NCBI GenBank assembly: GCA_041658885.1
Contig: JBAZZJ010000001.1
Coordinates: 14,779 to 78,778, forward strand
Direction: 5' to 3'
From: Minisyncoccota bacterium
GTDB lineage: Bacteria > Patescibacteriota > Minisyncoccia > Phycocordibacterales > 21-14-all-36-13
DNA: 64,000 bases
A program made the translations under genes and the position numbers. Shown one piece after another: positions 2,030-63,815 of the stretch. The notes beneath the pieces were generated by a model. That model was not told the origin of the DNA, searched no databases, and saw only the letters and a list, made by a program, of their open reading frames with translations. Within the stretch, counting starts at the first letter, position 1, and the number at the start of each line of letters is the position of its first letter.

Positions 2030-2150
2030 ATGGATCCCGTTAGAAACCGCGGTCACGGTTTAAAAACGGGGATTATAATGATGAGAAACATAGTATTACA
2101 AATTTAATTAAGCAGAGTGCGGTTGACCGCGACCTGCTTCTAACGGGATG
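2030..2150 (+). repeat. Start-codon hairpin element (family A), arms ATCCCGTTAGAA / TTCTAACGGGAT
   Basis: 12-bp perfect inverted repeat 2034-2045 / 2138-2149, flanked by ATGGA (2030) and ATGGA (2148, the gene start); internal hairpins 2045-2060 and 2119-2130. Confidence 0.8.
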
Positions 2151-2765
2151 GAAAAATTTAATAGGGGTAGCAAATCTAATGGAGGGGATAGAAAATTTGA
2201 CGGAAGAAGCTCTGGCGGAAGAGGTTTTGGTGATAGAAATGAAAGAAGTGGCGGAAGCAGAGGTTTTAATAAAGATAGATCGGACAAACCAGCAATGACT
2301 AAGGCGATATGTTCTGAATGTGGGAATGCATGTGAACTGCCATTTAAACCAACAGGAGATAAACCTGTTTTTTGCAGTGATTGTTTTAGAAACAAAGGCG
2401 GAAATTCAAATTCAAGTCAAGGTAGATTTGGTGGAAGGGATTCTGGCAGGTCTAAATTTGGAGAAAAAAGAATGTACCCAGCAGTATGTTCAGCTTGTGG
2501 AGAAAAGTGTGAGGTTCCATTTCAACCATCAAGCGACAAACCAATATATTGCAATAATTGTTTTGAAAAAAATGCTGATACCAAAAACAAAAATACAGAC
2601 CAATTTCAAAAACAATTTGAAATACTTAATGTTAAATTGGATAAAATTTTAAAAAGTTTATCGTTAGAAATTTCAAAAGAAGTTGTTGATACAAAAAAAT
2701 TAGTTAAAAAAACAGAAATATCTAAGATAAAAAAACCAGTAAAAAAGGTTTCAAAAAAGAAATAA
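2148..2765 (+). CDS. RGG-rich protein with two CxxC...PFxPxxDKPxxCxxCF zinc-ribbon-like modules and a K-rich tail; putative nucleic-acid binder
   Basis: Duplicated Cys motif (CSECGNACELPFKPTGDKPVFCSDCF and CSACGEKCEVPFQPSSDKPIYCNNCF), R/G-rich N-terminus. Confidence 0.65.
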   Translation: MEKFNRGSKSNGGDRKFDGRSSGGRGFGDRNERSGGSRGFNKDRSDKPAMTKAICSECGNACELPFKPTGDKPVFCSDCFRNKGGNSNSSQGRFGGRDSGRSKFGEKRMYPAVCSACGEKCEVPFQPSSDKPIYCNNCFEKNADTKNKNTDQFQKQFEILNVKLDKILKSLSLEISKEVVDTKKLVKKTEISKIKKPVKKVSKKK

Positions 2766-3712: not shown

Positions 3713-5470
3713 ATGAACAAGACAAAATTTTTTTACACAACAATCTTCTTTATTTTTTTTATTTCACTATTCTTTGTTTTCAATAATGCAAACGCAGGCC
3801 CTCTTGATAATGTTTCGTATCCAATTCCAGAATTAGGTAATTGTGGCTCTGTTTCAGAGTGTATGACATTTTGTGATATTTCAGAAAACCAAATTGCTTG
3901 TATTGATTGGGCGGCAAGTAAAAAGATGGTTTCAGAAGGGGAAGCTAGAAAAGTCAGAGATATGAATAAAAAGGAAGAAGAATTTAAACCAGGACCGGGT
4001 GGTTGTATATCTCCGCGAGAATGTGATGCATATTGCAGAGTGGAAGAAAATCTTCGTGAATGTATGGATTATAGTGTAAGAAAGGGGTACATGCCTAAAG
4101 AAGAAGCCGATGGAATAATTGCTAAAACAGAAAAAGGCGGTCCTGGTGGATGTAAATCAAAAAGCGAATGTGAAAATTTTTGTAAAAATCCAGAAAATGC
4201 CGATGAATGTCTTTCTTTTGTAGTAGACGAAGGGAAAATAACAAAAGAAGAAGCTGAATTTATGAAAGAGAGAATGAAAGAAGGGTCAAAAAAACCAAAA
4301 CGACCAGCACCAGAAGAAGAAGGAATTGATACTGAAAAAGTCCAAACAATCTTGAAAGAACAAACCGGACCGGGCGGGTGTACAAATATGGGAGAATGTC
4401 AGAAATATTGTATGGATTTTAACAATGCACAAGAATGTATGGAATTTGCCGTTAAACACCAAATAACAAAAACACCACAGGACCTTGAAAGAATAAAAAA
4501 AATTTCACAAATAAAATCAGGCCCCGGAGGATGTACAGGTCCTAACGAGTGTGATGCATTTTGTAGTAAAGAAGAAAACAGAGACGAATGTTTTAGATTT
4601 ACAAAAGAAAATCAGTTGATGTCTGAAGAAGAAATCCAAAAGATGGAAAAGGAAATAGAAATAGTTAAAAAACTCAAAGGAGGAGAAATGGTTGGTCCCG
4701 GCGGATGCAAGGGTCCAGAAGAATGTAATGCATTTTGTAGCAATTCGTCAAACATAGAAGAATGTATTAATTTTAGTGGGCAACACGGAATGCTTAATAA
4801 AAACACGGTCCAACAAATGATGGGGAAAACACAAGAAGCAAGACAAAAATTAATGGAAGTTGAAGAATTTAAGAGATTTAAAGGAATGGAACAAAACGGT
4901 GAGTTTAAAAATGGAGTTCCTGGAGAATTTATGAAATTTGGTCCACCACCGGGTGGTTTTGAGAACAAAGAAATGATGCCACCTGAAGCAACACAGATGA
5001 TGAAACCAGATGGATTTGTTCCACGAAGAGAAATGATACCGCAAGGTAATATGATTTTTCCTCCCCAAGATTTTCAAAAATACATGCCAGACGGAAGACA
5101 AGGAACAATGCCACCGGAAGGATTTTCTCCTCCGGAAGGTTTTGAAAAATTTATGCAACAATATCAAATACCACAAGAAGGAAATCAACCTTATCCAACA
5201 ACACCTCCGAGTGGATCTTATCCACCCCCTCCTAGTGGAACATATCAAGCACCACCAAGTGGATCCTATTCACCTCCTCCTAGTGGAACATATCAAGCAC
5301 CACCAAGTGGATCTTATCCACCTCCTCCTAGTGGAACATATCAAGCACCACCAGAAGGTTCTTACCCAACTCCAACGAACACAACAGGACCTTCCAGTTT
5401 TAATTCAAAAACTCTCATGGGCACAGTTTTAGAGGCTTTTTCCAGTTTGTTAGATAAAATAAATAAGTAA
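3713..5470 (+). CDS. Secreted modular protein: six GPGGC-x-EC-x2-(F/Y)C-x-EC four-Cys modules plus a Pro-rich PPSGSY/PPSGTYQA C-terminal repeat
   Basis: Signal peptide; six repeated Cys modules readable in the translation; 48-bp tandem repeats near the 3' end. Confidence 0.7.
   Translation: MNKTKFFYTTIFFIFFISLFFVFNNANAGPLDNVSYPIPELGNCGSVSECMTFCDISENQIACIDWAASKKMVSEGEARKVRDMNKKEEEFKPGPGGCISPRECDAYCRVEENLRECMDYSVRKGYMPKEEADGIIAKTEKGGPGGCKSKSECENFCKNPENADECLSFVVDEGKITKEEAEFMKERMKEGSKKPKRPAPEEEGIDTEKVQTILKEQTGPGGCTNMGECQKYCMDFNNAQECMEFAVKHQITKTPQDLERIKKISQIKSGPGGCTGPNECDAFCSKEENRDECFRFTKENQLMSEEEIQKMEKEIEIVKKLKGGEMVGPGGCKGPEECNAFCSNSSNIEECINFSGQHGMLNKNTVQQMMGKTQEARQKLMEVEEFKRFKGMEQNGEFKNGVPGEFMKFGPPPGGFENKEMMPPEATQMMKPDGFVPRREMIPQGNMIFPPQDFQKYMPDGRQGTMPPEGFSPPEGFEKFMQQYQIPQEGNQPYPTTPPSGSYPPPPSGTYQAPPSGSYSPPPSGTYQAPPSGSYPPPPSGTYQAPPEGSYPTPTNTTGPSSFNSKTLMGTVLEAFSSLLDKINK
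5204..5350 (+). repeat. 48-bp in-frame tandem repeat x3 (PPSGSYPPPPSGTYQA)
   Basis: AGTGGATCYTATYC recurs at 5210, 5258 and 5306. Confidence 0.8.
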
Positions 5471-5546: not shown

Positions 5547-5679
5547 ATGAATCCCCACACTAATCTTAATTTCGTTTAAAAACGGGTTAGTTTATAAAAT
5601 AGAGTAAGTGGCGGATTTTAATGTAAATAAAGAAATAGACTAGGTCAATATTATTAAAATTAAGATTAGTGTAGGGATG
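5547..5679 (+). repeat. Start-codon hairpin element, arms ATCCCCACACTAATCTTAATT / AATTAAGATTAGTGTAGGGAT
   Basis: 20/21 inverted repeat 5551-5571 / 5658-5678, flanked by ATGAA (5547) and ATGAA (5677, the gene start); TGGTAAAAT box 8 nt before 5547. Confidence 0.8.
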
Positions 5680-6834
5680 AAGTTAAAAGACGCAATATTT
5701 ATAATTTTTAGTCTAAGTCTCGCGTTTGCGTTATTTTTTTTGACCGTTGGGAGTATTCACGCGCAAGAAATAAAACCAGAGTTAAATTTGGATTTTTTTT
5801 ATAGTGAAACTTGTCCACATTGTATAGCTGAAAATGCTTTCTTAAACAAAATAGATGGAAAATATGAAGGTCTTACAATAAACAGATTTTTGATATCAGA
5901 AGAGAAAAATATTTCTCTGATGTACAAAACACTCCAAGATGCAAATAAATCAGAATATTTTGGGGTCGTTCCTCTCACATTTGTAGGAAAAGAATTTTTT
6001 GCGGGCTTTGATTCTGAAGATAAAATGGGTGTGGAAATTGAAAAATCAATTCAAAATCAATTACAAAAAGTTGAAATCAAAGAACAGAGGGGAAAAAATT
6101 TAAATTTACCAATTTTGGGTGAAATTAATATTCAAAATTATTCTTTACCCGCCTTGGCCGTGGTGTTGGGGACATTAGATGGAGTAAATGTTTGTTCTCT
6201 TGGGGCCCTTGTTTTGATTTTGGGTTTAGTTTTAAAGCTTCGTTCAAGAAAGAAAATATTTTTATTTGGCGGAACATATTTAATAATAACAGCCCTTGTT
6301 TATGGTGTATTAATAATCCTATGGAATAAACTTTTTGTTTTTCTTGGAGCCTATTTAAAAACAATTGAATTAGTAATAGGAGGAATTGGACTTATTGGTG
6401 GGGTATACTTTATAAAAGAATTTTTAAGAATAAGAAAACAGGGATTAGTATGTGAATCGTCTAATTCAAAAATCATTTCTTCTGCATCTCAAAAAATAAA
6501 AAATATATTTGATAAAAAAGGGATTTTTGGAATGCTTTTTGGAATAATTGTTTTTTCAGGGCTCGTAACGATTATTGAATTTCCTTGTTCAGCAGTCGTA
6601 CCAGTATCTTTTGCAGGAATTTTGGCAGAAAAAGGAATATCAAATTTCTGGACTTTAATTTATATAGGAATGTTTATTTTATTTTATCTTTTAGATGAAA
6701 TAGTAGTATTTGCCATAGCGGTTTATAAAATGGACATCTGGTTAACTTCGCCCAAGTTTACAAAATGGGCATCTCTAATAGAGGGTATAATTTTAATTGC
6801 CCTTGGTCTTTATTATATTATTAATTTTATTTAA
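5677..6834 (+). CDS. Thioredoxin-fold (CPHC) domain fused to a DsbD/CcdA-like polytopic membrane domain
   Basis: Signal peptide, ETCPHCIAEN CxxC motif, then multiple TM segments with conserved Cys (NVCSLGAL, EFPCSAVVP). Confidence 0.6.
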   Translation: MKLKDAIFIIFSLSLAFALFFLTVGSIHAQEIKPELNLDFFYSETCPHCIAENAFLNKIDGKYEGLTINRFLISEEKNISLMYKTLQDANKSEYFGVVPLTFVGKEFFAGFDSEDKMGVEIEKSIQNQLQKVEIKEQRGKNLNLPILGEINIQNYSLPALAVVLGTLDGVNVCSLGALVLILGLVLKLRSRKKIFLFGGTYLIITALVYGVLIILWNKLFVFLGAYLKTIELVIGGIGLIGGVYFIKEFLRIRKQGLVCESSNSKIISSASQKIKNIFDKKGIFGMLFGIIVFSGLVTIIEFPCSAVVPVSFAGILAEKGISNFWTLIYIGMFILFYLLDEIVVFAIAVYKMDIWLTSPKFTKWASLIEGIILIALGLYYIINFI

Positions 6835-6873
6835 TCTGCGTAGATCTGCGTTTTTATTTGAGATAATCTGCGT
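6834..6873 (-). repeat. Cluster of three ATCTGCGT octamers (reverse complement of ACGCAGAT)
   Basis: Copies at 6834, 6844 and 6866; the first abuts the stop codon of the upstream CDS. Confidence 0.7.
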
Positions 6874-6879
6874 TTCAAT

Positions 6880-15059: not shown

Positions 15060-15190
15060 ATGGATCCCGTTAGAAATAAAAAGAGATAGTATATAGAAAA
15101 TAACCATCAAATATAAAAAGGTCAACAAATTAAAAATTAATTAAATAAATCGCGGAAATGCCTTCGGCAATCCCGATTTCTAACGGGATG
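15060..15190 (+). repeat. Start-codon hairpin element (family A), arms ATCCCGTTAGAAAT / ATTTCTAACGGGAT
   Basis: 14/14 inverted repeat 15064-15077 / 15176-15189, flanked by ATGGA (15060) and ATGGA (15188, the tkt start). Confidence 0.85.
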
Positions 15191-16030
15191 GAATTAAATG
15201 AGAAAAAAATATTTGAATTAAAAAAAATCGCGAAAGAGGTTCGTAAAACAATTATAAAATCTCTCGTTTCAGCTGGTTCTGGACATACTGGAGGGCCACT
15301 TGGTATGGCTGATATATTTACTGCGTTTTATTTTTATATATTAAAACATAACCCAAAGGAACCACTTTGGTCCGAAAGAGATATATTAATTTTATCAAAT
15401 GGGCACATTGTTCCTGCGAGGTATTCAGCAATGGCGCACGCTGGTTATTTTTCAGTTGAGGAGTTTGAAAATGGGTTAAGAAAATTTGGAACGGTTTTTC
15501 AAGGTCATCCAGATAGAAAATTTTTACCATCGATGGAAACTACGTCTGGTCCTTTAGGTTGTGGCCTTGGGCAGGCAAGTGGAATTGCGCTTGGAGCAAA
15601 AATGGATGGAAAAAGTTTTTATACTTATTGCATAATGTCTGACGGAGAACATCAAGAAGGAAACCTCTGGGAATCGGTTATGTTTGCCGGAAAATATAAA
15701 ATAGATAATCTAACGGGAATTATAGACAGAAATAATATTCAAATAACTGGTAACACAGAAAATATAATGCCCTTGGAATCGTTGAGAAGTAAATATGAAG
15801 CATTTAATTGGAATGTGATTGAAGTTGACGGACACGATTTTGTAAAATTTATTGAGGCAATTGAAATGGCAAAAGTTTCTCGTGGCAAACCAACAGTAAT
15901 TATTGCCCACACAATTCCGGGAAAGGGAGTAAAAGAAATTGAAAACGATTACAAATGGCACGGAATTGCACCGAATAGAGAGCAAGGTGAGAGGTTTTTA
16001 AAAGAATTAGAAGAAACCCCAGTTAAATAA
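15188..16030 (+). CDS. Transketolase, N-terminal (TPP-binding) subunit
   Basis: GHTGGPLGMADI and SDGEHQEGNLWE motifs; start moved to 15188 (MELNEKK) because the upstream 10 codons translate the repeat arm. Confidence 0.85.
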   Translation: MELNEKKIFELKKIAKEVRKTIIKSLVSAGSGHTGGPLGMADIFTAFYFYILKHNPKEPLWSERDILILSNGHIVPARYSAMAHAGYFSVEEFENGLRKFGTVFQGHPDRKFLPSMETTSGPLGCGLGQASGIALGAKMDGKSFYTYCIMSDGEHQEGNLWESVMFAGKYKIDNLTGIIDRNNIQITGNTENIMPLESLRSKYEAFNWNVIEVDGHDFVKFIEAIEMAKVSRGKPTVIIAHTIPGKGVKEIENDYKWHGIAPNREQGERFLKELEETPVK

Positions 16031-19439: not shown

Positions 19440-19521
19440 AAAATCGCAGATTCACCCCGTTAAATCCTGCGAAGCAGGAATTTTGCCAAAGGCAAAATTA
19501 TTTAACAGGGTAAACGCAGAT
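19429..19521 (+). repeat. 93-nt three-stem palindromic element (family B)
   Basis: 92/93 identical to 26731-26823. Outer stem TTCACCCCGTTAAAT/ATTTAACAGGGTAAA, hairpins CCTGC-GAA-GCAGG and TTTTGCC-AAA-GGCAAAA, flanked by AACGCAGAT. Confidence 0.9.
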
Positions 19522-22567: not shown

Positions 22568-22697
22568 ATGGATCCCGTTAGAAATAAAACACGGGACAAG
22601 CAGATAAAAACAAATAGAATGTGAACGATAGTATCAAACAAAAATTATAAATTAACTCACGGAAATGCTTTTGGCAATTCCGATTTCTAACGGGATG
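22568..22697 (+). repeat. Start-codon hairpin element (family A), arms ATCCCGTTAGAAAT / ATTTCTAACGGGAT
   Basis: 14/14 inverted repeat 22572-22585 / 22683-22696; ATGGA at 22568 (6 nt after TATAAT 22556-22561) and ATGAA at 22695 (the prfA start). Confidence 0.85.
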
Positions 22698-23654
22698 AAT
22701 AATATTGAAGAATTAAAAAAGAATCCGAAAACAAGTTTTCTTGTTAAAGAATATGAACGCCTACAAAAAGAAGAAGGCAGTCTTTCAGATATGATTAAAA
22801 AGGATTCAAATTTAAAGGAACTTGCTGAAAATGAAATTCAATCAATAAAAATTCAAAAAGATGGGATAGAAAAACAAGTTGAAGAAATTTTGAAAACAGA
22901 AATTGAAGAAGAAGAGTTTCCTAATGAAATAATTATGGAGATTCGAGCCGGCGCTGGTGGGGACGAAGCATCTATTTTTGCTGAGAATTTAGCAAATATG
23001 TATGAAAAATTTTCTGTACTAAATGGATGGAGTTTTAAAAAAATAGACGAATCAAAGAGTGCATCCGGTGGTTATAAAGAAGTGTCTTTTGAAATAAAAG
23101 GTAAAGATGTTTATAAAAAAATGCGTTTTGAAACAGGAGTACACAGAGTACAAAGAATTCCAGTTACAGAAAAGTCGGGGAGAATACACACATCAACAGC
23201 TTCCGTTGCAGTATTGCCAATTGGAAAAAAGAAAACGATTGAAATCAATCCTTCAGATATTGAAATGGAATTTTCTCGCTCTGGAGGCGCTGGTGGACAA
23301 AATGTAAACAAAGTTGAAACGGCGGTTCGTCTTATACATAAACCAACGGGTATTGCAGTTAGGTGCACAGAGGAAAGAAGTCAGTTAAAAAATAGAGAAA
23401 AGGCAATGAGTATTTTACAAGCAAAACTTGAAGTGCTTCACGAGGAAGAAGAAGCAAAAAAGCTATCTTCTGAAAGAAAATCACAGATAGGGACGGCCGA
23501 CAGGTCTGAAAAAATAAGAACATATAATTATTTACAAGACAGAATTACGGACCATAGAATTAAAAAATCGTGGCATAACATAGAAAGCATAATGGCTGGT
23601 TATATAGAAGATATGATAAGTGAATTTGAAAATTTAGAAACAAAAATAGAGTAA
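22695..23654 (+). CDS. prfA: Peptide chain release factor 1
   Basis: GGQ motif ([16 protein letters not shown]) and PVT tripeptide region; start set at MNNIEELKK. Confidence 0.9.
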
Positions 23655-23656
23655 TT

Positions 23657-23761
23657 ATCCCTCCCTACTTTTGTTCCTGATTTTAAACACATTTTTAACC
23701 AGGCAAACTTTCCTGTCATTTGGTATTGAATTGTAGATTAGTTACAAAAGTAGAGAGGGAT
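23657..23761 (+). repeat. 105-nt hairpin element, arms ATCCCTCCCTACTTTTGT / ACAAAAGTAGAGAGGGAT
   Basis: 17/18 inverted repeat 23657-23674 / 23744-23761, starting 3 nt after the prfA stop. Confidence 0.75.
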
Positions 23762-25713: not shown

Positions 25714-25948
25714 GCCGGCATAGCTCAGTTGGCAGAGCGCCACTTTTGCTCGCCCCGTTAGAACTTTTTGTGATATTGTTTTCAAGTAAGTAGGGATTTG
25801 TTTATTTTTTGCCACTTTAGCTCAGTTGGTAGAGCAACGGTTTTGTAAACCGTAGGTCGTCGGTCCGAATCCGACAAGTGGCTCCAAAATTTAAAAGTTC
25901 TAACGGAGTAAATGGATGTCCGGGGTTCGAATCCTCGTGCCGGCTCCA
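25714..25948 (+). tRNA. Interrupted tRNA gene: 5' half ~25714-25751, 3' half ~25911-25948 with CCA. Apparent anticodon UGC, identity uncertain
   Basis: Acceptor GCCGGCA/TGCCGGC 7/7, D arm GCTC-AGTTGGCA-GAGC, T arm CGGGG-TTCGAAT-CCTCG. Anticodon loop split by a ~160-nt insert closed by CCGTTAGAAC/GTTCTAACGG. Confidence 0.6.
25811..25886 (+). tRNA. tRNA-Thr(UGU), nested inside the insert of the interrupted tRNA
   Basis: Acceptor GCCACTT/AAGTGGC, anticodon arm ACGGT-TTTGTAA-ACCGT, T arm GTCGG-TCCGAAT-CCGAC, encoded CCA. Confidence 0.85.
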
Positions 25949-25984
25949 AAAGTTTTGAATAGATGTTGAGTATTTTATATTAAA

Positions 25985-26517: not shown

Positions 26518-27405
26518 ATGGCAGAACAAGATAAAAACAAAGAAAAAGGACATTATCATCCTATCACAATAACAATGTTTAAAATCGGCAAGATTTTTGA
26601 CGATTTAGGTTTTGAAATTGCAGATGGACCACATATAGAGGATGAATATCATAATTTTGATGCACTTAATATTCCCGCGGACCATCCGGCACGAGATATG
26701 TGGGATACCTTTTGGTTAAAGACGCAAATTAACGCAGATAAAAAACCGCAGATTCACCCCGTTAAATCCTGCGAAGCAGGAATTTTGCCAAAGGCAAAAT
26801 TATTTAACAGGGTAAACGCAGATAAAAATACCAACACAAGTCCGCGTGAATTTCCGCGTGAGTCTGCGATGTTATTAAGAACACACACTTCTCCGGTACA
26901 GATTAGATATATGGAAAATAATAAACCACCTATAAAAATTATTGTCCCTGGGAAGATTTTTAGATATGAAGCAACAGATGCAACACACGAGGCACAATTT
27001 TATCAATTGGAAGGACTTATGATTACTCCAAATACTTCACTTGCAACTCTTAAGGGGGTTTTAAAAGATTTTTTAGAAAAATTTTTTGAAGAAAAAATTG
27101 ATATCCGTTTTCGCCCGAGTTATTTTCCATTCGTTGAGCCAGGCCTGGAAGTTGATGCAACCTGTTTTAAATGTTCAGAAAAAATAAATCCAAGTTGTCC
27201 GATATGTAAAGGAACTGGGTGGATAGAAATAATGGGTGCGGGGATGGTTCATCCAAAAGTTTTAGAGAATTGTGGTATTAATCCACAAGAGTGGCAGGGT
27301 TTTGCCTTTGGTGTCGGGATAGATCGTCTAGTTATGCTCAAATACGAAATTCCAGATATAAGAATGCTTTATTCTGGGGATTTGAGATTGATAAATCAAT
27401 TTTAA
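26518..27405 (+). CDS. pheS: Phenylalanine--tRNA ligase alpha subunit, carrying an in-frame repeat insertion
   Basis: HPARDMWDTFW, LLRTHTSPVQ and FRPSYFPFVEPG motifs. Confidence 0.9.
   Translation: MAEQDKNKEKGHYHPITITMFKIGKIFDDLGFEIADGPHIEDEYHNFDALNIPADHPARDMWDTFWLKTQINADKKPQIHPVKSCEAGILPKAKLFNRVNADKNTNTSPREFPRESAMLLRTHTSPVQIRYMENNKPPIKIIVPGKIFRYEATDATHEAQFYQLEGLMITPNTSLATLKGVLKDFLEKFFEEKIDIRFRPSYFPFVEPGLEVDATCFKCSEKINPSCPICKGTGWIEIMGAGMVHPKVLENCGINPQEWQGFAFGVGIDRLVMLKYEIPDIRMLYSGDLRLINQF
26731..26823 (+). repeat. 93-nt family B element in frame within pheS (31 codons)
   Basis: 92/93 identical to 19429-19521; read through as NADKKPQIHPVKSCEAGILPKAKLFNRVNAD. Confidence 0.9.
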
Positions 27406-27414
27406 AAAACAATC

Positions 27415-29817
27415 ATGCTTATTTCATATAAATGGCTTCAAGAATATTTTGATAAGCCTGCCCGCCAATTGGCAGGCGGGAAATTTCCAAAACCGGAAGA
27501 AATTAAAAATGCACTTACAATGCACTCTTATGAAGTTTCTGAAATTTTAAAAGACAAAGATGATTTTATTTTTGATGTAGATATTTTACCAAACAGAGCT
27601 CACGACTCACTTTCTTATTTTGGGATTGCGCGAGAAATTGGAATGCTTTTTGATTTAAAAACAAAATTTCCAGACTTAGATAAATTACAAGCAGACAAAA
27701 GTTTAAAATCATCAGATTTTTTAACTTTAAAAATTGAAAATCCAAATGAATGCAGACGAGCAACAAAACGACTTGTTGTCGATGTCAGAGTAAAAGAATC
27801 ACCAGATTGGCTTAAGGAAAAATTATCAAAATTTGGACAAAAATCTATAAATAACATTGTTGATGCAACAAATTTTGTAATGATGGAAACGGGGCAACCT
27901 GTTCATGCTTTTGATTTTGATAAATTAGCAACTGGGAAGAATGACAAAAAAAATATTTCAATAAAATTAGCAGAAAAAGCAGAACAAATAACAACACTTG
28001 ATGAAAATCATTATGTTCTAGATGAAAATGTCTTAGTAATTCACGATGGAGAAAAACCGCTTGATATAGCTGGAATAAAAGGAGGAATAGACACTGGAAT
28101 AGATGAAAAGACAAAAAAAATTGTTTTATCAGTTTGTAGTTTTAATCCTAAGAGCATAAGAAGAACTTCTAAAAAATTAGGATTACAAACAGAAGCATCA
28201 AAAAGATTTGAAGCAGATGTAAGTTCTGAATTGGTTTACACAGCTATGCAAAGATTATCCCAACTTGTTTCAGAATTGTCTGGTGGAAAAGTGAGCGAAG
28301 AAATTTTGGACGAATATCCAAGAAAATCAAATCCATACAAAATAGGAATTTCAATTGATGAGGTTAATAAAATTTTAGGGACCGAGATAAGAGAAAAAGA
28401 ATTTGAAAAAATTTTAGACAAACTCGGATTTGAATATAAAAAAATAAAACCACTTAATGAAATTAAAAAATTAATTTCACAAGTTGAAGGCAAGCCTTAC
28501 AAATTTGGTTCAAGTGTAAGTTTTGATGCACCAAATTATTTTGATTGCTCGTCCTTAACCGCGTATTTGTTTGCACAGGCTGGGATTCAAATTCCAAGAG
28601 TTTCAGTTGACCAATACGTTTTTGGAAAAGAAATTTCTGAAAATGAAGCAAAATTTGGTGACATAGTATTTTTAAATACGAGGAATGGAAAAATTCATTA
28701 TGAAACGGTAGATTTTATAAAAGGAACAAAAGTTAAGGAGGGGGTTGACCATTGCGGTTTATGTTTAGGTGATGGAAAGGTTTTGCATACATCAAGATTT
28801 AATGGAAATAAGGTTGATATTCAAAACATAGAAAATAATCTATCTTTTAAAACAATTGTTGGTTATAGAAGATTTACAGACAATGAAGAAAGATATGTTT
28901 TAACAATCCCTTATTACAGAAATGACTTAAGAATTAAAGAAGATTTAGTTGAAGAAATTGGAAGAATTTTTGGTTATGAAAATGTTTCTTACGATTTACC
29001 AAAAAAGGATTCTGAAGCAAAAAAAGATAAAATATTTTATTATTCAAATTTAATAAAGAACTTTTTTGTAAGCGAAGGATTTTCAGAGGTCTACAATTAC
29101 GCGTTTGTTAACGAAGGAGAAATTGAGTTATTAAATCCTTTGGCAAGCGATAAAAAATATTTGAGAGATACTACAAAAAAACAATTAAGAAATAGTATAT
29201 TTTTTAATTATAAGCATTCTGACATTCTGGCTCTTAATGAGATTAAAATTTTTGAAATTGATAAAATTTATAAGAGAGAAAAAGAAACTCTCTGTTTATC
29301 TTTCGGTATAAAATTCAAAAAAGAAAACCTAAAGGAATATTTGTTCAATATTAAAGAAAAGTTGAGAAAAATACTGAATAAAGAAGAATTTGATCATACG
29401 GAGTATGGTGAATTTTATGATGAAGTAATTTTCGAAATTGATATAGATAAATTAATTGAAAAACTTCCAGAAGTTAATTCATACGAAAAATTATTTAAAG
29501 AATTTTCTGAAAATTATAAAGACACAAATAAGAAGTATAAAAACATTTCTCAATACCCATTTGTCTTGAGAGACATTGCAGTTTGGGTTCCTATAAAAAC
29601 AGAAAGTGGGGAAGTGTTAGCGTTAATAAAACAAAATTCTGGTGAATTGCTTATGCAAAGTAAATTATTTGATGAATATAAAAAAGATAACAAGGTTTCA
29701 TACGCGTTTCGGTTGGTTTTTCAATCACAGGACAAGACCTTAACAGACGATGAGGTAAATGAAGTGATGAAAAAAATAGAAAACAAAATAATTAAAAAGG
29801 GGTGGGAAGTTAGGTAA
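27415..29817 (+). CDS. pheT: Phenylalanine--tRNA ligase beta subunit with an inserted NlpC/P60-like domain
   Basis: B3/4 motif DATNFVMMETGQPVHAFD, B5, RNDLRIKEDLVEEIGRIFGYENV and the FDX-ACB C-terminus; insertion ~28450-28885. Confidence 0.9.
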   Translation: MLISYKWLQEYFDKPARQLAGGKFPKPEEIKNALTMHSYEVSEILKDKDDFIFDVDILPNRAHDSLSYFGIAREIGMLFDLKTKFPDLDKLQADKSLKSSDFLTLKIENPNECRRATKRLVVDVRVKESPDWLKEKLSKFGQKSINNIVDATNFVMMETGQPVHAFDFDKLATGKNDKKNISIKLAEKAEQITTLDENHYVLDENVLVIHDGEKPLDIAGIKGGIDTGIDEKTKKIVLSVCSFNPKSIRRTSKKLGLQTEASKRFEADVSSELVYTAMQRLSQLVSELSGGKVSEEILDEYPRKSNPYKIGISIDEVNKILGTEIREKEFEKILDKLGFEYKKIKPLNEIKKLISQVEGKPYKFGSSVSFDAPNYFDCSSLTAYLFAQAGIQIPRVSVDQYVFGKEISENEAKFGDIVFLNTRNGKIHYETVDFIKGTKVKEGVDHCGLCLGDGKVLHTSRFNGNKVDIQNIENNLSFKTIVGYRRFTDNEERYVLTIPYYRNDLRIKEDLVEEIGRIFGYENVSYDLPKKDSEAKKDKIFYYSNLIKNFFVSEGFSEVYNYAFVNEGEIELLNPLASDKKYLRDTTKKQLRNSIFFNYKHSDILALNEIKIFEIDKIYKREKETLCLSFGIKFKKENLKEYLFNIKEKLRKILNKEEFDHTEYGEFYDEVIFEIDIDKLIEKLPEVNSYEKLFKEFSENYKDTNKKYKNISQYPFVLRDIAVWVPIKTESGEVLALIKQNSGELLMQSKLFDEYKKDNKVSYAFRLVFQSQDKTLTDDEVNEVMKKIENKIIKKGWEVR

Positions 29818-29892
29818 AAATAATAAGGCAAAAAATAAGTATATTTTGGATTCAAATGCTCCGCTAGAGCATAAAAAAAGAAAAATTACTTG

Positions 29893-29956
29893 TCCCGTTA
29901 AATGCGAAGCATATTTAACTGGGATGGATTTAAATGCCCCAGTGGGGCATTTAAAT
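29893..29956 (+). repeat. Two adjacent hairpins upstream of gyrB (family B-like TCCCGTTAAAT... arm, then a perfect 13-bp stem)
   Basis: 29893-29924 bulged hairpin with a GCGAAGC tip; 29928-29956 ATTTAAATGCCCC-AGT-GGGGCATTTAAAT. Confidence 0.65.
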
Positions 29957-34541: not shown

Positions 34542-34577
34542 TTTTTATTTTGATATTTTTCATGCCCCACAGGAAAC

Positions 34578-34714
34578 TATTTTCTAATTTAATTAAATAG
34601 TTGAATAGTGAAGTTTAGCGATTAAAAATGTATTTTCTAATTTAATTAAATAGTTGAATAGTGAAGTTTAGCGATGAAAAATGTATTTTCTAATTTAATT
34701 AAATGGTTGAATAG
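34578..34714 (+). repeat. Three direct 31-nt repeats TATTTTCTAATTTAATTAAAT(A/G)GTTGAATAG at 53-bp period
   Basis: Units 34578-34608, 34631-34661 and 34684-34714; intervening 22-mers nearly identical; core ATTTAATTAAAT is palindromic. Confidence 0.85.
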
Positions 34715-34833
34715 TTTTGGTATATAAAGAGATTATTGAATTTATAGAAAATTTGGTGTATTTTAAACTATGTAAGGTATAGAAAAACTTTATGAAAAAA
34801 GAAACTGATTCATAAATCTTTATATTTAAAATT

Positions 34834-35676
34834 ATGGCGCCAGATAAATACAAATCTATATGGGTATCACATTCTTCCATTGGAGATTTCTTAAAATGTC
34901 CACGGGCTTATTATCTGCATAATGTTTATAAAGACACCAAAACGGGAAGAAAAATAAATATTGTTAATCCTGCGCTTTCTCTTGGCCAAGCGGTGCATAC
35001 AATCCTTGAGTCATTAAAAAATGTTCCAGTTGAAGAAAGAATGAAACGAGATTTATTAGCTGATTTTGAAGTTGCTTGGTTACAAGTGTCTGGGAGAAAA
35101 GGTGGATTTAAAAATAGCGACGAAGAAGCCAAGATTAAAAAACGAGGCATTGAGATGATAAAACGAGTTATAAAAAATCCGGGACCGATTGCAAATAAAA
35201 CCATTAAAATAAAGCAAGGACATAATAATATGCCACCAAATTTTTACCTTTCTGAAGATGAAAATATAATACTTTGTGGGCTTGTTGATTGGTTGGAATA
35301 TATTGAAGAAGATGACAGCGTTCGTATTCTTGATTTTAAAACTGGCAAAAACGACGAAGCTGAAGATTCACTTCAACTCCCAATTTATCTCTTGCTTCTA
35401 AGTGCATTACAAAAACGAAAAATTTCTGGGGCGTCATATTGGTATCTTAATAAAGATGATAAACCAACAGAGATGACATTGCCCGATATTAATGAAGCTA
35501 AAGAAAAAGTACTCACGGTTGCTTTGAAAGTTAAAGAAGCCAGAGAAAAAGAAACTTTTAATTGTTCGCGCGGAGATAAAGGATGTTTTGCTTGTAAATC
35601 ATACGAATCTATTTTGAAAGGTGAGGCGGAATATATTGGTATTGGTGGCTATGGACAGGACATGTATTTTTTATAG
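34834..35676 (+). CDS. PD-(D/E)XK nuclease, Cas4/AddB-like with a four-Cys cluster
   Basis: N-terminal CPRAYYL, LVDW, ILDFKTG (D-x-K), QLPIY and C-terminal C-x6-C-x2-C. Confidence 0.75.
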   Translation: MAPDKYKSIWVSHSSIGDFLKCPRAYYLHNVYKDTKTGRKINIVNPALSLGQAVHTILESLKNVPVEERMKRDLLADFEVAWLQVSGRKGGFKNSDEEAKIKKRGIEMIKRVIKNPGPIANKTIKIKQGHNNMPPNFYLSEDENIILCGLVDWLEYIEEDDSVRILDFKTGKNDEAEDSLQLPIYLLLLSALQKRKISGASYWYLNKDDKPTEMTLPDINEAKEKVLTVALKVKEAREKETFNCSRGDKGCFACKSYESILKGEAEYIGIGGYGQDMYFL

Positions 35677-35746
35677 AAAATATTATTAATTTAAGCCATA
35701 TACCGTGTCCAAAACGTGCGTGACTTAACTATTCTCTCCAGGAAAC

Positions 35747-35876
35747 CATTCTCTAATTTAATTAAATAGTTGAATAGTGAAGTTTAGCGACGAAAAATGT
35801 ATTTTCTAATTTAATTAAATAGTTGAATAGTTTCATTTCCATATGTATTTTCTAATTTAATTAAATGGTTGAATAG
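35747..35876 (+). repeat. Second block of three copies of the same 31-nt repeat
   Basis: Units 35747-35777, 35800-35830 and 35846-35876; first spacer matches the upstream block; upstream CAGGAAAC homology also shared. Confidence 0.85.
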
Positions 35877-36006
35877 TTCAATATAAAACAAATAGTGTTT
35901 TTAGGGAATTTTGAGAATTTGGAGGATTATTCAAATTTTTTCAAAAAATTTTTAAAAAGTTTTCTAAAATGGTAGAATATAAATAGAGGTTTAGCTAAAT
36001 AAAGAT

Positions 36007-42402: not shown

Positions 42403-42990
42403 TTTTTAAAAAAATCTATCCCGTTAAATAAAAGAGCCGGGGGTTCAGAGTACCCCGGCTTGTTAAATAATCTCTATGTTGAGGTGAGTTATTTAACTGA
42501 CAAACTCATAATAAATACATTCATAAAAAATCTCCCTTTGCCGATCTTTACCTGTGGGGATATGGAGCATGTACCTCACTGAGTTATAGTACTATGTCCA
42601 CAAATAATAATATCATAAATCAAGGAAAATAAAAAAAAGCGCAGATTACGTCTGCGCTTTTGCTTCTTCATCGTATGAATCTCTCTCCAATTAAAAACTG
42701 GGAGATGTTCAGCTCTTTTTATCTTAAATGAACTCCCGTTAGGGTTATTTATAATTTAGCATGTCTTTTTAAAAAAGCAATAAAAGGGGACAACTTTTGA
42801 TTGTCCCCTTAAAAAGATGCCTAAGAAGAGGTTACTTGTTCCTACAACAAGCCCTCGTTTTCGCTTTAGCAAATTTTTCATTTAGTTCCTCCAATTTTTA
42901 AGAAAAGGAACTTTTACTGGTTCTCTAAAGAACCAATGTTATTCTAATATAAAATATTTTTTTTTGCAATAAATTTATTGTATAATTCAT

Positions 42991-43045
42991 CCTGTGGAAT
43001 ATGATGCTTTAGCATCATAAAACCTAAAGGTTTTTATTTCACGGG
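42991..43045 (+). repeat. 55-nt three-stem element immediately 5' of leuS (homolog of 50284-50341)
   Basis: Outer stem CCTGTGGAAT/ATTTCACGGG (two G-U), hairpins ATGATGC-TTT-AGCATCAT and AAAACC-TAA-AGGTTTT; TATAAT 42981-42986 just upstream. Confidence 0.75.
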
Positions 43046-43055
43046 ATAAAATATA

Positions 43056-48085: not shown

Positions 48086-49141
48086 ATGGAAGAAAAAGAA
48101 AATTTTATAAAAAACCCATTAGACAAATTTCACCCTGTTAAATCCTGCAAAGCAGGAATTTTGTCTATAACAAAATTATTTAACGGGGCAAGCAAAAAGG
48201 ATTACGAAATTATAAGCACAATTGCAAGTGTGATTTTACTTCTTTGTGCTTTTTATTTTTTCTTTTTCTCAGCGCCATTTAATTTCCCGGTCGGGTCAGT
48301 TATTCGTATAGATAGAGGGTTGTCTTTAGATGAAATATCAAAACTTTTATATAAAGAAAATGTCATAAAATCACCTTTCTGGTTTAAGGCCATTATCACC
48401 GTTATTGACGGACAAGGCGGGGCAGATGCAGGAGATTATTTTTTTAGTAAAAAAAGAGGTTTAATAAATGTATCAACAAGAATATCAAATAGTGAATATG
48501 GTTTGATACCAATATCAATAACAATTCCAGAGGGAGCTACAAGTTTTGAGATATCTGAAATTTTAAGAAAAAATATTAGCAACTTTGATTCGGAAAAGTT
48601 TTTAAAAATAGCAGTTCCTCTTGAAGGATATCTTTTTCCTGATACATACTTTTTTTTACCAAACATAACCCCTGAAAATGTTATAGAGACAATAAAAAAT
48701 AATTTTGTTAAAAAAATCTCAACTATATATGGTGAAATAGAAAAATTTGATAAACCACTTGAAGACATAATAATAATGGCTTCAATAATTGAAGAAGAAG
48801 CTAGAAATTTTGAGACCAGAAAAATTGTTTCTGGGATTTTATGGGAGAGAATAAAAATAGACATGCCACTTCAAGTAGATGCAGTCTTCCCATATATAAT
48901 TGGTAAAAATACATACGAGCTGACTTTAAATGATTTATCTCATGATTCTCCATACAATACATATAAATATAAAGGGCTTCCATTTGGTCCTATATCGAAT
49001 CCAGGTCTTGATTCTATAAAAGCAACCATAAGTCCAACGAAGACAAATTATCTTTATTATCTATCTGATAGGGGTGGAAACATGCACTACGCTAAGACCT
49101 TTTCTGAACATAAAATAAACAAATTAAAATACATAAATTAA
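48086..49141 (+). CDS. mltG: Endolytic murein transglycosylase MltG (YceG-like), family B element in the N-terminal tail
   Basis: ASIIEEEA, LQVDAV and YNTYKYKGLPFGPISNPG motifs. Confidence 0.85.
   Translation: MEEKENFIKNPLDKFHPVKSCKAGILSITKLFNGASKKDYEIISTIASVILLLCAFYFFFFSAPFNFPVGSVIRIDRGLSLDEISKLLYKENVIKSPFWFKAIITVIDGQGGADAGDYFFSKKRGLINVSTRISNSEYGLIPISITIPEGATSFEISEILRKNISNFDSEKFLKIAVPLEGYLFPDTYFFLPNITPENVIETIKNNFVKKISTIYGEIEKFDKPLEDIIIMASIIEEEARNFETRKIVSGILWERIKIDMPLQVDAVFPYIIGKNTYELTLNDLSHDSPYNTYKYKGLPFGPISNPGLDSIKATISPTKTNYLYYLSDRGGNMHYAKTFSEHKINKLKYIN
48128..48188 (+). repeat. Family B three-stem element in frame in the mltG 5' coding region
   Basis: TTTCACCCTGTTAAAT / ATTTAACGGGG arms; CCTGC-AAA-GCAGG; AATTTTGT-CTATA-ACAAAATT; translated as HPVKSCKAGILSITKLFNG. 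Confidence 0.8.
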
Positions 49142-49144
49142 TTC

Positions 49145-49248
49145 ATCCCCCACTTTTTATATTTTATTCTTATAATGGCATCCTATTTATCACTCTTAAA
49201 TCTGATTTTAATGATTATTTATAGATATTTTTTGCAAAAGTGGGGGAT
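49145..49248 (+). repeat. 104-nt hairpin element, arms ATCCCCCACTTTT / AAAAGTGGGGGAT
   Basis: 13/13 inverted repeat 49145-49157 / 49236-49248, starting 4 nt after the mltG stop. Confidence 0.8.
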
Positions 49249-49285
49249 AAAAAACCCTTGAAAAATAGGGTCTTTTTTGATATAA

Positions 49286-49347
49286 TTTACCCTGTTAAAT
49301 AATTTGTTGAAGACAAATTCCTGCGAAGCAGGATTTAACAGGGTAAA
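49286..49347 (-). repeat. Family B element, opposite orientation, perfect 15-bp outer stem
   Basis: TTTACCCTGTTAAAT / ATTTAACAGGGTAAA 15/15; AATTTGT-TGAAG-ACAAATT; CCTGC-GAA-GCAGG; overlaps TATAAT 49281-49286. Confidence 0.85.
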
Positions 49348-49382
49348 CCCCTAACTCTTGTTTTTTTGTTTTCTTGAATACA

Positions 49383-50283: not shown

Positions 50284-50341
50284 CCCCGTGGAACATGGTG
50301 CTTTAGCATCATAAAATCCAAAAGATTTTTATTCCACAGGG
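50284..50341 (+). repeat. 58-nt three-stem element immediately 5' of gyrA (homolog of 42991-43045)
   Basis: CCCCGTGGAA/TTCCACAGGG outer stem, ATGGTGC-TTT-AGCATCAT (G-U), AAAATC-CAAAA-GATTTT; ends 8 nt before the ATG. Confidence 0.75.
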
Positions 50342-50349
50342 TAAAACTT

Positions 50350-55560: not shown

Positions 55561-55688
55561 ATGAACCCCGTTAGATATCAAATAGAATAATTGAGGATAA
55601 ATAACAACAAAACTAATTTAAAAATAAAATGTCAAAAATTATTAAAAAAATCAACGAGAGCCCAAGACCCCCTATCTCTAACGGGGTG
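55561..55688 (+). repeat. Start-codon hairpin element (family A variant), arms CCCCGTTAGATA / TATCTCTAACGGGG
   Basis: Inverted repeat 55566-55577 / 55673-55686 (2-nt bulge), flanked by ATGAA (55561) and GTGAA (55686). Confidence 0.75.
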
Positions 55689-56009
55689 AAAATTTTTAGA
55701 AAAATACAATTATTAATTTTATTCCTCATTATCCCACTGGTCAGTAGTGCGGCCACAATAGGAGGCGGAACATTTAAAGAAATAATTTATAGTTTGGTTG
55801 TATTTATAAACAAATTTATTATTCCAACATTAGTCGGTCTTGCTCTGCTAGTATTTTTCTGGGGCGTAGCCAATTTTATTCGTTCGGCAGGGAATCCCGA
55901 AGCCATAGAAGAAGGTAAGAAAAAAATGTTGTATGGAATATTAGGGTTATTTGTAATTGTAGGTGTTTGGGGTTTAATTGGTATTTTGAGAAATACTTTT
56001 GACATCTAA
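55686..56009 (+). CDS. T4SS pilin-like small membrane protein, paralog 3 (GTG start proposed)
   Basis: From GTG 55686 the N-terminus (V/M)KIFRKIQLLILFLIIPLVSSAAT matches the paralog signal peptides; the upstream 19 codons translate the repeat. Confidence 0.55.
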   Translation: MKIFRKIQLLILFLIIPLVSSAATIGGGTFKEIIYSLVVFINKFIIPTLVGLALLVFFWGVANFIRSAGNPEAIEEGKKKMLYGILGLFVIVGVWGLIGILRNTFDI

Positions 56010-63370: not shown

Positions 63371-63732
63371 TGGTGCCCGGGGCGGGAATGTCGCAGTGCT
63401 CCCCCGTGATTTTTTTGTCTCACAAGCTCGACATAAAAAATCATTCGATTCCCGACGAAAGTAAATAAATTTACTTTCTCCCCAATCACTTTGTGCCCGG
63501 GGCGGGAATGTCGCAGTGCTCCCCCGTGATTTTTTTGTCTCACAAGCTCGACATAAAAAATCATTCGATTCCCGACGAAAGTAAATAAATTTACTTTCTC
63601 CCCAATCACTTTGTGCCCGGGGCGGGAATGTCGCAGTGCTCCCCCGTGATTTTTTGTCTCGCAAGCTCGACATAAAAAATCATTCGATTCCCGACGAAAG
63701 TAAATAAATTTACTTTCTCCCCAATCACTTTG
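63371..63732 (-). repeat. Three ~120-bp tandem units, each beginning with a 16-nt copy of the tRNA-Leu(UAA) 3' end
   Basis: TGCCCGGGGCGGGAAT at 63374, 63494 and 63614 (and 63733 in the gene); each unit contains the hairpin GAAAGTAAAT-TT-ATTTACTTTC. Confidence 0.9.
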
Positions 63733-63815
63733 TGCCCGGGGCGGGAATCGAACCCGCATGGCGTGAAGCCACAAAATTTTAAGTCTTGCGTGTATACCAG
63801 TTCCACCACCCGGGC
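63733..63815 (-). tRNA. tRNA-Leu(UAA), no encoded CCA
   Basis: Acceptor GCCCGGG/CCCGGGC, anticodon arm CAAGA-CTTAAAA-TTTTG, long variable arm, T arm GCGGG-TTCGATT-CCCGC. Confidence 0.85.

Follow-up and report, generated by a model that had tools for sequence, protein, structure and literature searches.

The window analysed here, by which we mean the whole 64,000-nt stretch of the Minisyncoccota contig JBAZZJ010000001.1 (G+C = 32%), carries a hairpin element on the start codon of its transketolase gene tkt, and related hairpins sit on the start codons of three further genes and inside a tRNA gene. We call these hairpins family A. We show for them insertion, target duplication, mobility, a polarity relative to the gene and occupancy of start sites, and they are probably copies of a non-autonomous DNA transposon, resembling the miniature inverted-repeat transposable elements (MITEs), that inserts on gene starts. 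The closest named match of the window Tkt protein is "Patescibacteria group bacterium".

Hairpin elements in the window

An exact inverted-repeat search located the arms of five family-A copies in the 64 kb, four at gene starts and one in a tRNA gene; a further element lies at 5547 (Table 1). The four gene-start copies (2030, 15060, 22568 and 55561) have in common the perfect arms YCCCGTTAGA…TCTAACGGGR, with ATGRA to their left and (A/G)TGRA to their right; the triplet to the right begins a gene that Pfam identifies clearly (transketolase N-terminal half, release factor, type IV secretion system (T4SS) pilin and zinc-finger protein). Allowing at most one mismatch, we counted 22 occurrences of the arm motif CCCGTTAGA where 6.1 are expected; none of 100 shuffles attained this number, so that the motif is not a product of chance.

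At the reference copy, on tkt, the arms ATCCCGTTAGAAAT (15064-15077) and ATTTCTAACGGGAT (15176-15189) pair at 14 of 14 positions, the stem closing with the A and U of the tkt AUG (15188-15190) as its final two bases, just as the initial annotation of this DNA had described. Its reading of the left ATG as the opening of a short open reading frame (the mini-ORF, 15060-15089: ATG GAT CCC GTT AGA AAT AAA AAG AGA TAG, or MDPVRNKKR*) is likewise confirmed, as are the final ~40 nt which it saw to be common to copies 15060 and 22568. The tkt start codon is composed of the element's terminal A and the duplicated TGGA (15189-15192). Beside the right arm lies a hairpin, ATCG-C-GGA-AA-TGCC-TTC-GGCA-A-TCC-CGAT (15149-15177), and the 141-nt RNA of the whole copy folds at -28.8 kcal/mol (z = -3.3).

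The other gene-start copies are built alike. Copy 2030, whose arms (2034-2045 / 2138-2149) pair 12/12, has ATGGA at either side and belongs to the subfamily of a copy found on the fba gene of a relative, described below. In copy 22568 the arms (22572-22585 / 22683-22696) pair 14/14, the flanks (left ATGGA, right ATGAA) are one later change apart, and 6 nt separate the left ATG from a native TATAAT upstream of it. Copy 55561, with 11/11 paired arms (55565-55575 / 55677-55687), has the termini C...G, which give a rebuilt start of GTG (left ATGAA, right GTGAA). The initial annotation had counted the element at 5547 with these, as one of five loci of a single architecture; the layout does hold at all five, but the 22-nt arms at 5547 (5551-5572 / 5657-5678, 95% complementary; CCCCACACTAATC...) are unrelated to family A and its match to the family's covariance model is weak (E 0.34). 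The element at 5547 and copy 2030 have the internal motif GTTTAAAAACGGG in common.

Table 1. Coordinates of the hairpin elements and of the parts of the reference copy in the window
Feature	Position	Strand	Remarks
Reference copy: left target copy (A + TGGA)	15060..15064	+	original tkt start codon, now opens mini-ORF
Reference copy: left terminal inverted repeat, T CCCGTTAGAAAT	15065..15077	+	14/14 pairing; match to covariance model R1
Reference copy: AT-rich variable core	15078..15148	+	GGTCAA motif at 15120-15125
Reference copy: hairpin adjoining right arm, counterpart of P3	15149..15177	+	minimum-energy fold; P3 covariation in other genomes
Reference copy: right terminal inverted repeat, ATTTCTAACGGG A	15176..15188	+	last base is the A of the tkt AUG
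tkt N-terminal-half gene	15188..16030	+	Pfam Transketolase_N, 7e-54
Family-A copy on zinc-finger protein gene start	2030..2152	+	model 64 bits
Element of the same layout on membrane-protein gene start	5547..5681	+	ATGAA, T CCCC...GGG A, TGAA
Family-A copy on release-factor gene (prfA) start	22568..22699	+	model 73 bits
Family-A copy in resident tRNA-Thr(UGU)	25750..25908	+	arms 25755-25768 / 25893-25906
Family-A copy on T4SS-pilin gene start	55561..55690	+	model 62 bits

Filled and empty sites in close relatives

Two relatives, L128 and L131 (labels of this form denote our loci from other genomes), encode Tkt proteins of 90% and 84% amino-acid identity to that of the window, with the same gene order on their contigs. 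The tkt site is filled in the window and empty in both relatives (ATGGAATTAAA), where ATGGAA(T/A)TAAA begins 2 nt past the rpe stop and no element is present. In the window the same site reads ...aaatt ATGGA|TCCCG...CGGG|ATGGAATTAAAT, and the N-terminus of the protein, MELNEKK, still aligns with the relatives' MEINEEK and MELNTEK. The reverse holds for fba: the site is empty in the window and L131 (ATGAAATC; window ATGAAATCTTTA, L131 ATGAAAATC) and filled in L128, the 90% relative, where it reads TGATATAAT-N7-ATGAA|T CCCG...CGGG G|TGAAATC. This L128 copy scores 57 bits with the covariance model described below, and the fba start is now GTG, which means that the first base of the rebuilt start codon was supplied by the element. 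At the empty sites the sequence that flanks the element elsewhere belongs to the host, being codon 2 in both tkt and fba, so the repeat is a true duplication. The comparison of empty sites in related genomes, which the initial annotation had proposed, thus came out in favour of insertion at both genes.

The same comparison bears on the nature of the target. The initial annotation noted that deleting what lies between the two repeats would restore a leaderless layout; this is indeed the layout of most window genes, which have TATAAT, 6-9 nt and then ATG, without a Shine-Dalgarno sequence, but the tkt start was not a leaderless target, because the rpe stop lies 2 nt before the tkt ATG in the relatives. 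Transcription-start bubbles, considered as a possible target, were rejected for the reference copy, the tkt start being operon-internal in the relatives.

The relative L128 also differs from the window in other respects: an ORF for a GIY-YIG endonuclease (4740-5033), between a VTT-domain gene and rpiB, is without counterpart in the window, and several of its intergenic spacers are longer than those of the window.

Copies in other genomes and the duplicated target

A search of one genome per GTDB species for CCCGTTAGA-N85-115-TCTAACGGG matched at least 120 stretches; the copy-level counts for other genomes given here come from 138 full-length copies among the matches listed. Copies are 103-135 bp in size, and their internal reading frames are short and variable. 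The Patescibacteria hosts listed are Saccharibacteria, Paceibacteria/Parcubacteria, Nomura-, Kaiser-, Wolfe-, Uhr-, Lloyd-, Azam-, Levyi- and Berkelbacteria and Kazan; Omnitrophota, Planctomycetota, Deltaproteobacteria, Edwardsbacteria and Stahlbacteria are the other hosts among the matches listed. Between Patescibacteria, Omnitrophota, Planctomycetota and Deltaproteobacteria the arms do not differ, which points to a widely shared or horizontally moving enzyme.

A perfect 4-bp repeat flanks 93 of the 138 copies, compared with 0 in a control shifted by 6 nt, and lies immediately outside the bases Y...R which abut CCCG...CGGG. These end bases are complementary in 130 of the 138 (T:A 77, C:G 53); because R follows Y, and not the base to the left of the target, the duplication is of 4 bp and Y...R is part of the element. 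The duplication proposed in the initial annotation therefore stands, while its length of 5 bp does not: what is duplicated is TGRA, while the element contributes the start codon's first base.

The duplicated sequences are TGAA (41), TAAA (14), TGGA (11), TGAG (10) and others (17), and the preferred target is R|TRRA, taking the form A|TGAA or A|TGGA in bacteria of the candidate phyla radiation (CPR) and G/A|TAAA in Omnitrophota, Planctomycetota and Deltaproteobacteria. Among the 65 listed copies with a TGNN duplication, A stands at -1 in 62, and 60 occupy the opening codon of an ORF 60 codons long or longer. Against a reference rate of 34%, given by start-codon ATGRA (27) versus intergenic ATGRA (53) in the window, the 60/65 has a binomial p = 8e-23. 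The MITE-like character and the preference for starts suggested by the initial annotation are both borne out by this census of arms with their flanks; its emphasis on leaderless starts is to be corrected, as the target need not be leaderless.

The 84 downstream proteins match 106 Pfam families (topoisomerase, release factor, L17, SecDF, ClpP, PGK, aminoacyl-tRNA synthetase and others), and no common regulon was seen among them by Pfam. Some copies stand in tandem, spaced by ATGAAT (L035, L039), or are nested (L016, L024), as repeated insertion would lead one to expect. At L035 (5899-6278) three elements are in tandem with ATGAAT between them, the middle one having different arms (CCCGTAGT...ACTACGGG), which shows repeated insertion into a duplicated target and the existence of further arm variants.

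Direction and conserved fold

The elements point one way. Read in the direction of the gene, the end beside the start codon is usually (Y)AC-GGNNNNN-loop-NNNNNCC-TRYY-TCTAACGGG, and hairpins of at least 7 bp abut the start-side arm in 35 of 93 copies versus 10 of 93 at the opposite arm. RNAalifold, applied to 22 copies, gave a 14-bp arm helix and a 7-bp hairpin, P3, with double-sided compensatory changes in three inner arm pairs and five P3 pairs. Across arms and P3, 98.3% of cells are paired, with 51 double-sided changes versus 16 ± 3 in shuffles, and sliding the partners lowers pairing to about 40%; the 22 copies, none of them from the window, were picked by eye for the motif, so these P3 figures are biased towards the fold. 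The arm helix alone is 99.7% paired in the same 22 copies from other genomes.

P3 lies toward the gene in 31 of the classifiable TG-type copies and away from it in 4, and interior motifs have a strand bias (CGGG 30 vs CCCG 5; GTCRA 24 vs 9). The covariance model R1, built only from the 22 non-window copies, finds window copies 22568, 15060, 2030 and 55561 on the gene strand with 62-73 bits (E 1e-9 to 1e-11) and on the opposite strand with 22-37 bits; the higher gene-strand scores mean that all four share one orientation.

The copy in a tRNA gene

The fifth family-A copy of the window interrupts the resident tRNA-Thr(UGU) gene (25714-25949) in the anticodon loop, between G35 and U36, and itself encloses an intact tRNA-Thr(UGU) gene (25811-25886) that differs from the resident one. 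A pattern search of metagenomes found 50 occurrences of the uninterrupted outer tRNA (GCCGGCATAGCTCAGTTGGTAGAGCGCCACTTTTGTAAAGTGGATGTCCGGGGTTCGAATCCTCGTGCCGGCTC), which is again tRNA-Thr(UGU), and comparison with it shows that the 3' anticodon-stem strand of the resident gene has lost one G (AGTGG to ATGG). Judged from these sequences, the resident tRNA gene looks dead, with the cargo tRNA apparently replacing it. The same arms enclose a tRNA-Val in a genome unrelated to the window (L097, 432-538), and at L041 they reach into the 5' end of a tRNA-Leu. ARAGORN with introns allowed, together with 1,120 artificial splice constructs of the split tRNA, was uninformative, and Rfam, at the gathering threshold and at E up to 5, matched only tRNAs.

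Start signals in and around the elements

Outside the CPR, copies lie between the ribosome-binding site and the ATG, or within the first codons with an in-frame start of their own; in phyla that use Shine-Dalgarno sequences the family sits on TAAA spacers or in first codons. Two copies (L012 and L061) stand between Shine-Dalgarno and ATG. In Planctomycetota (L018) a copy placed after codon 6 brings AGAGGGGG-N10-ATG in frame, and at L020 an in-frame ATG in the copy substitutes for eight lost codons. A 105-nt copy within a lipoprotein signal peptide (L040) is translated through in frame and contains AAGGAG-N9-ATG. At L124 two identical copies have inserted into genes resembling those of type-IV pilins, where they separate the leader (M..KG) from FTLIEL; the old start is not in frame across them, and their own ATG reads MKSSITTKKYSKDGKLLTG|FTLIEL.

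In 88 of 121 analysable copies, a figure given without a random control, a start codon lies within -75 to +45 nt of a junction and is in frame with an ORF of 80 codons or more that runs away from the element. No interruptions of gene bodies were seen in the sampled copies. The start of the CPR copies is, as far as reading frames predict it, the junction codon. The mini-ORF opened by the left ATG varies in length and reaches the TAA of the right arm in only 14 of 96 copies; in-frame internal ATGs are present in 18 of 96 copies and, in the window, lie at 15158, 22665 and 55629. Termination-reinitiation by an upstream ORF ending at the right-arm TAA (TC-TAA-CGGG-ATG) was rejected as a general device, any ATG in that frame being found in only 43 of 96.

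A MITE-like transposon as the likely origin

We propose that an element of about 105-135 bp, whose terminal inverted repeats (Y CCCGTTAGA... / ...TCTAACGGG R) are perfect and which has a P3 hairpin by one arm, inserts into R|TRRA and duplicates 4 bp of its target. ATGRA is the commonest start context in these AT-rich genomes, and the terminal A or G of the element, followed by the duplicated TG.., makes a new ATG or GTG before an untouched reading frame. Through this rebuilding of ATG or GTG a gene survives an insertion on its start codon intact, while an insertion of the same kind within it is destructive; in our reading, target preference, self-repair and purifying selection together concentrate the surviving copies on start codons. 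We infer that the gene-facing end also aids expression, from the 31:4 orientation, from the non-CPR copies with Shine-Dalgarno and in-frame ATG, and from the one copy with a replacement tRNA. For the CPR copies the likeliest routes to expression would be transcription from within the element, which would leave the left arm out of the RNA, or upstream translation that melts the stem.

Several points weigh against this reading, or against its sufficiency. The first concerns expression: -10-like hexamers are equally frequent on both strands (62 vs 64 copies), although some in the core are strong, consensus promoter scans of two window copies were not above shuffles, and the right arm was rejected as a -10 box for a leaderless junction ATG, there being no TAnnnT at the required distance. 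No promoter signal above chance was seen inside the elements, and the transposon reading does not by itself account for translation of the stem-embedded AUG. Nor was an internal -10 box at a fixed distance found within the elements. Secondly, an autonomous partner was not found: in 845 kb of loci, unpaired arms pair only less than 380 bp away (the near partners being diverged arms, and nested copies explaining the rest), and no transposase family was matched among the 20 larger window ORFs tested. Thirdly, the window has 167 intergenic TGRA sites against 27 ATGRA gene starts, and few copies are intergenic; tolerance alone fails to explain this scarcity, and active targeting or positive selection may be involved. 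Finally, 45 of the 138 listed copies are without a perfect duplication, some of them having the recurrent left flank ACTTGY or GCTTGC, and the census, which needs exact arms and a fixed range of spacing, is a sample and not a count.

Viral contigs gave three matches, which were chance-like and had none of the family's features. The family is widespread, MITE-like, tied to translation starts, and new; searching the literature for the arm sequence and for the topic, we came upon no account of it or of any MITE in the CPR.

Alternative explanations

It is possible, though we think it unlikely, that the copies now act as domesticated 5' regulatory cassettes, in which folded RNA would control translation and either translation of the mini-ORF or a competing fold would expose the AUG. 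Such a role is compatible with a mobile origin and does not exclude it. It would be in keeping with the A and U of the AUG lying within the stem, with the covariation of P3 and the 31:4 orientation, and with arms that are perfectly paired even where the left duplicate has decayed (L058, L081, L126); the same genes are also filled in different lineages (prfA in the window and L014, and the pairs L009/L031 and L072/L102). Orthologous genes, however, hold copies of different subfamilies, which suggests repeated insertion rather than inheritance, and the tkt and fba genes of close relatives do without the element. The length and stop position of the mini-ORF are not conserved, so few reaching the right-arm TAA, and no function is common to the downstream genes.

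A second alternative, which appears improbable to us, is movement as single-stranded DNA by a hairpin-recognising HUH/Y1 enzyme, in the manner of IS200/IS605 derivatives and REP/RAYT units, with insertion in one orientation and beside a specific pentanucleotide instead of through a staggered cut of the DDE type. Insertion is indeed polar with respect to an asymmetric target, the hairpin at one end is conserved in structure rather than in sequence, target preference varies by lineage, and RYAGG (often GTAGG) precedes the hairpin on the other strand, which presumably parallels the GTAG of REPs. IS200/IS605 elements, however, are not known to make a duplication or to possess terminal inverted repeats, whereas in family A the flanking repeat is host sequence in the empty sites and both ends are formed by perfect inverted repeats, 10-14 bp or longer. 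Among the 20 window ORFs tested, none was seen to be a Y1 gene.

We are about equally doubtful of an element that homes to translation-initiation regions and stays silent because its perfect stem folds some 120 nt aside. The home site would be the leaderless CPR start codon, or the spacer between Shine-Dalgarno and ATG elsewhere, and the base of the helix would juxtapose the Shine-Dalgarno sequence, or the 5' end, with the AUG. This would amount to structural excision, or to ribosome shunting between duplicated AUGs, in bacteria. If it were true, the element, together with its cargo (promoter, start codon, leader peptide, tRNA), would be a portable start-of-gene module moving across phyla.

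Removal from the RNA in the manner of an intron, by cleavage and ligation at the stem or by an endonuclease of the bulge-helix-bulge type, which would render the place of the element in a gene immaterial, is very hard to credit. The initial annotation had raised removal at the RNA level, and the copy in a tRNA anticodon loop and the identical end pentamers, which permit a seamless junction, might seem to invite it. It is contradicted by the decay of the interrupted tRNA, which lost an anticodon-stem base while an intact tRNA of the same anticodon lies inside the element, and by intragenic copies whose genes rely on the in-frame start that the element carries. The first-codon copies examined either have such a start or are read through, sampled gene bodies are uninterrupted, and there was no match to an Rfam intron or ribozyme at E up to 5. 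The stems of the reference and tRNA copies are perfect, without 3-nt bulges, and have no bulge-helix-bulge geometry; at the tRNA copy such a motif was tried and rejected as incompatible with the conserved arm helix.

Least credible of all is a native structural signal (a processing stem or attC-like site) that arose in place, for while the arms enclose tRNA genes in two unrelated genomes (window 25755-25906, L097 432-538), and GTTAGAA and TTCTAAC resemble integron core sites, the filled and empty orthologous sites with target duplication contradict it, the nested and tandem copies (L016, L024, L035, L039) are typical of insertion, and the core-like motifs come in an order that mirrors what we take to be the attC layout, so that we reject the integron analogy.

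Comparison with known elements

The transposon reading places family A among the MITEs (such as Correia/NEMIS of Neisseria, ERIC, RUP and Nezha), which are small and non-coding, with terminal inverted repeats and an RNA stem-loop; they make target-site duplications, occur in many copies with filled/empty polymorphism, and some fuse with gene 5' ends (PMC3184786). Family A agrees with them in being less than about 400 bp long, in its inverted repeats and target duplication, in its number of copies, in having empty sites and in having no transposase gene. It differs from known MITEs in its 4-bp R|TRRA target, its exact seat on the start codon and the rebuilding of that start from a terminal base, in its fixed orientation to the gene, in the covarying hairpin near one end and in having its arms in several phyla; a parent insertion sequence for family A was not found. 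What sets it apart is therefore exact start-codon occupancy, completion of the codon by its own end, fixed orientation, compensating cargo and cross-phylum spread.

We also compared it with the REP2 repeats of Neisseria, which are of the promoter/RBS/ATG kind, and with the IR repeats of Borrelia. In REP2, terminal inverted repeats are absent and there is no sign of a target duplication (PMC3184786). Like REP2, family A supplies the translation start of a downstream gene; unlike REP2, it has perfect terminal inverted repeats, and its start signal is either at the junction (CPR) or internal. Of the REP2-like internal starts, those of L018 and L040 consist of Shine-Dalgarno plus ATG, those of L020 and L124 of an in-frame ATG. 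Rickettsia palindromic elements are palindromic and mobile, and are tolerated in genes with the frame kept, according to the account of Ogata et al. 2000 in PMC3184786. In-frame translation of this type is confined to L040 and to related 66-nt elements in pheS and yceG; unlike the Rickettsia elements, the reference copy stops after 9 codons and most family-A copies lie on or just before the start codon, and the host ranges are entirely different.

Bypass elements, such as the phage T4 gene 60 gap and the mitochondrial 'byps', are gaps of 27-55 nt inside coding sequence. Family A resembles them as a hairpin-bearing mRNA insert between identical codons (ATGRA either side), but unlike them its frame-shifted copies use start codons of their own. 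Of the features of IS200/IS605 and REP-RAYT systems only the one-end hairpin matches, since family A has a duplication and terminal repeats; it lacks the features of group I, group II and bulge-helix-bulge introns, and its variable core and the want of a related gene set are unlike a riboswitch or gene-specific leader. A likeness to the ends of piggyBac / IS1380-type elements (a CCC start, TAGA + GATA words, and CCCTAGAAAGATA vs CCCGTTAGAGATA) is short and maybe due to chance; we take both to make a 4-bp T..A-type duplication and treat this as a lead only.

The completion of a start codon by a terminal base indicates how mobile DNA may persist in tiny, gene-dense genomes with hardly any intergenic space, and some members of the family bring substitute N-termini or a substitute tRNA with them. 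Apparently genes whose normal start is the mRNA 5' end still work with an AUG in a 12-14 bp stem, 120 nt downstream, and the mechanism by which this buried AUG is used would bear on initiation in leaderless bacteria. There is a practical side also, for gene callers extend or misplace starts at such CPR inserts; the database Tkt begins MPSAIPISNG, inside the element.

Related palindromes and other features

Related palindromes of 62-66 nt, with arms YCCC(C/T)GTTAAAT...ATTTAAC(G/A)GGGR and two inner hairpins, are also present. Short palindromes of the window lie at 19450-19515, 26752-26817, 48128-48193, 49285-49348, 29888-29929 and 42414-42480; two that are in frame within pheS and yceG encode HPVKSCxAGIL...KLFN, in the manner of a Rickettsia palindromic element, and in the relative L128 one lies upstream of prfA (15227-15292). 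The word ATCTGCG(T) recurs at 6835-6879, in the flanks of the palindromes at 19450 and 26752 and in L128 at 15290-15336; standing upstream of genes and beside short palindromes, it could form a binding-site array. Two hairpins of ~100 nt with ATCCC...GGGAT termini (23657-23761 and 49145-49248) come right after stop codons, without a flanking repeat and without similarity to the family-A core.

The leuS (42985-43055) and gyrA (50300-50349) genes have in common an upstream sequence of ~45 nt, AGCATCATAAAAYCYAAAGRTTTTTATTYCACRGGRTAAAA, ending a few bases before the ATG, which may be a repeated 5' element or a shared leader. Inverted-repeat clusters of the AATTTAATTAAAT type (34574-34717 and 35742-35878) flank a gene for a PD-(D/E)XK / Cas4-like nuclease (34834-35676), and may make up another mobile unit with it. 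The ORF for the PheRS beta subunit (27415-29817) has an NlpC/P60 peptidase domain (residues 359-486) between B3_4 and B5, an unusual insertion. Beside tRNA-Leu(UAA), at 63444-63752, lie three tandem units of ~120 nt, each with a palindrome, GAAAGTAAATAAATTTACTTTC, and a tRNA-3'-like sequence, TTCGATTCCCG.

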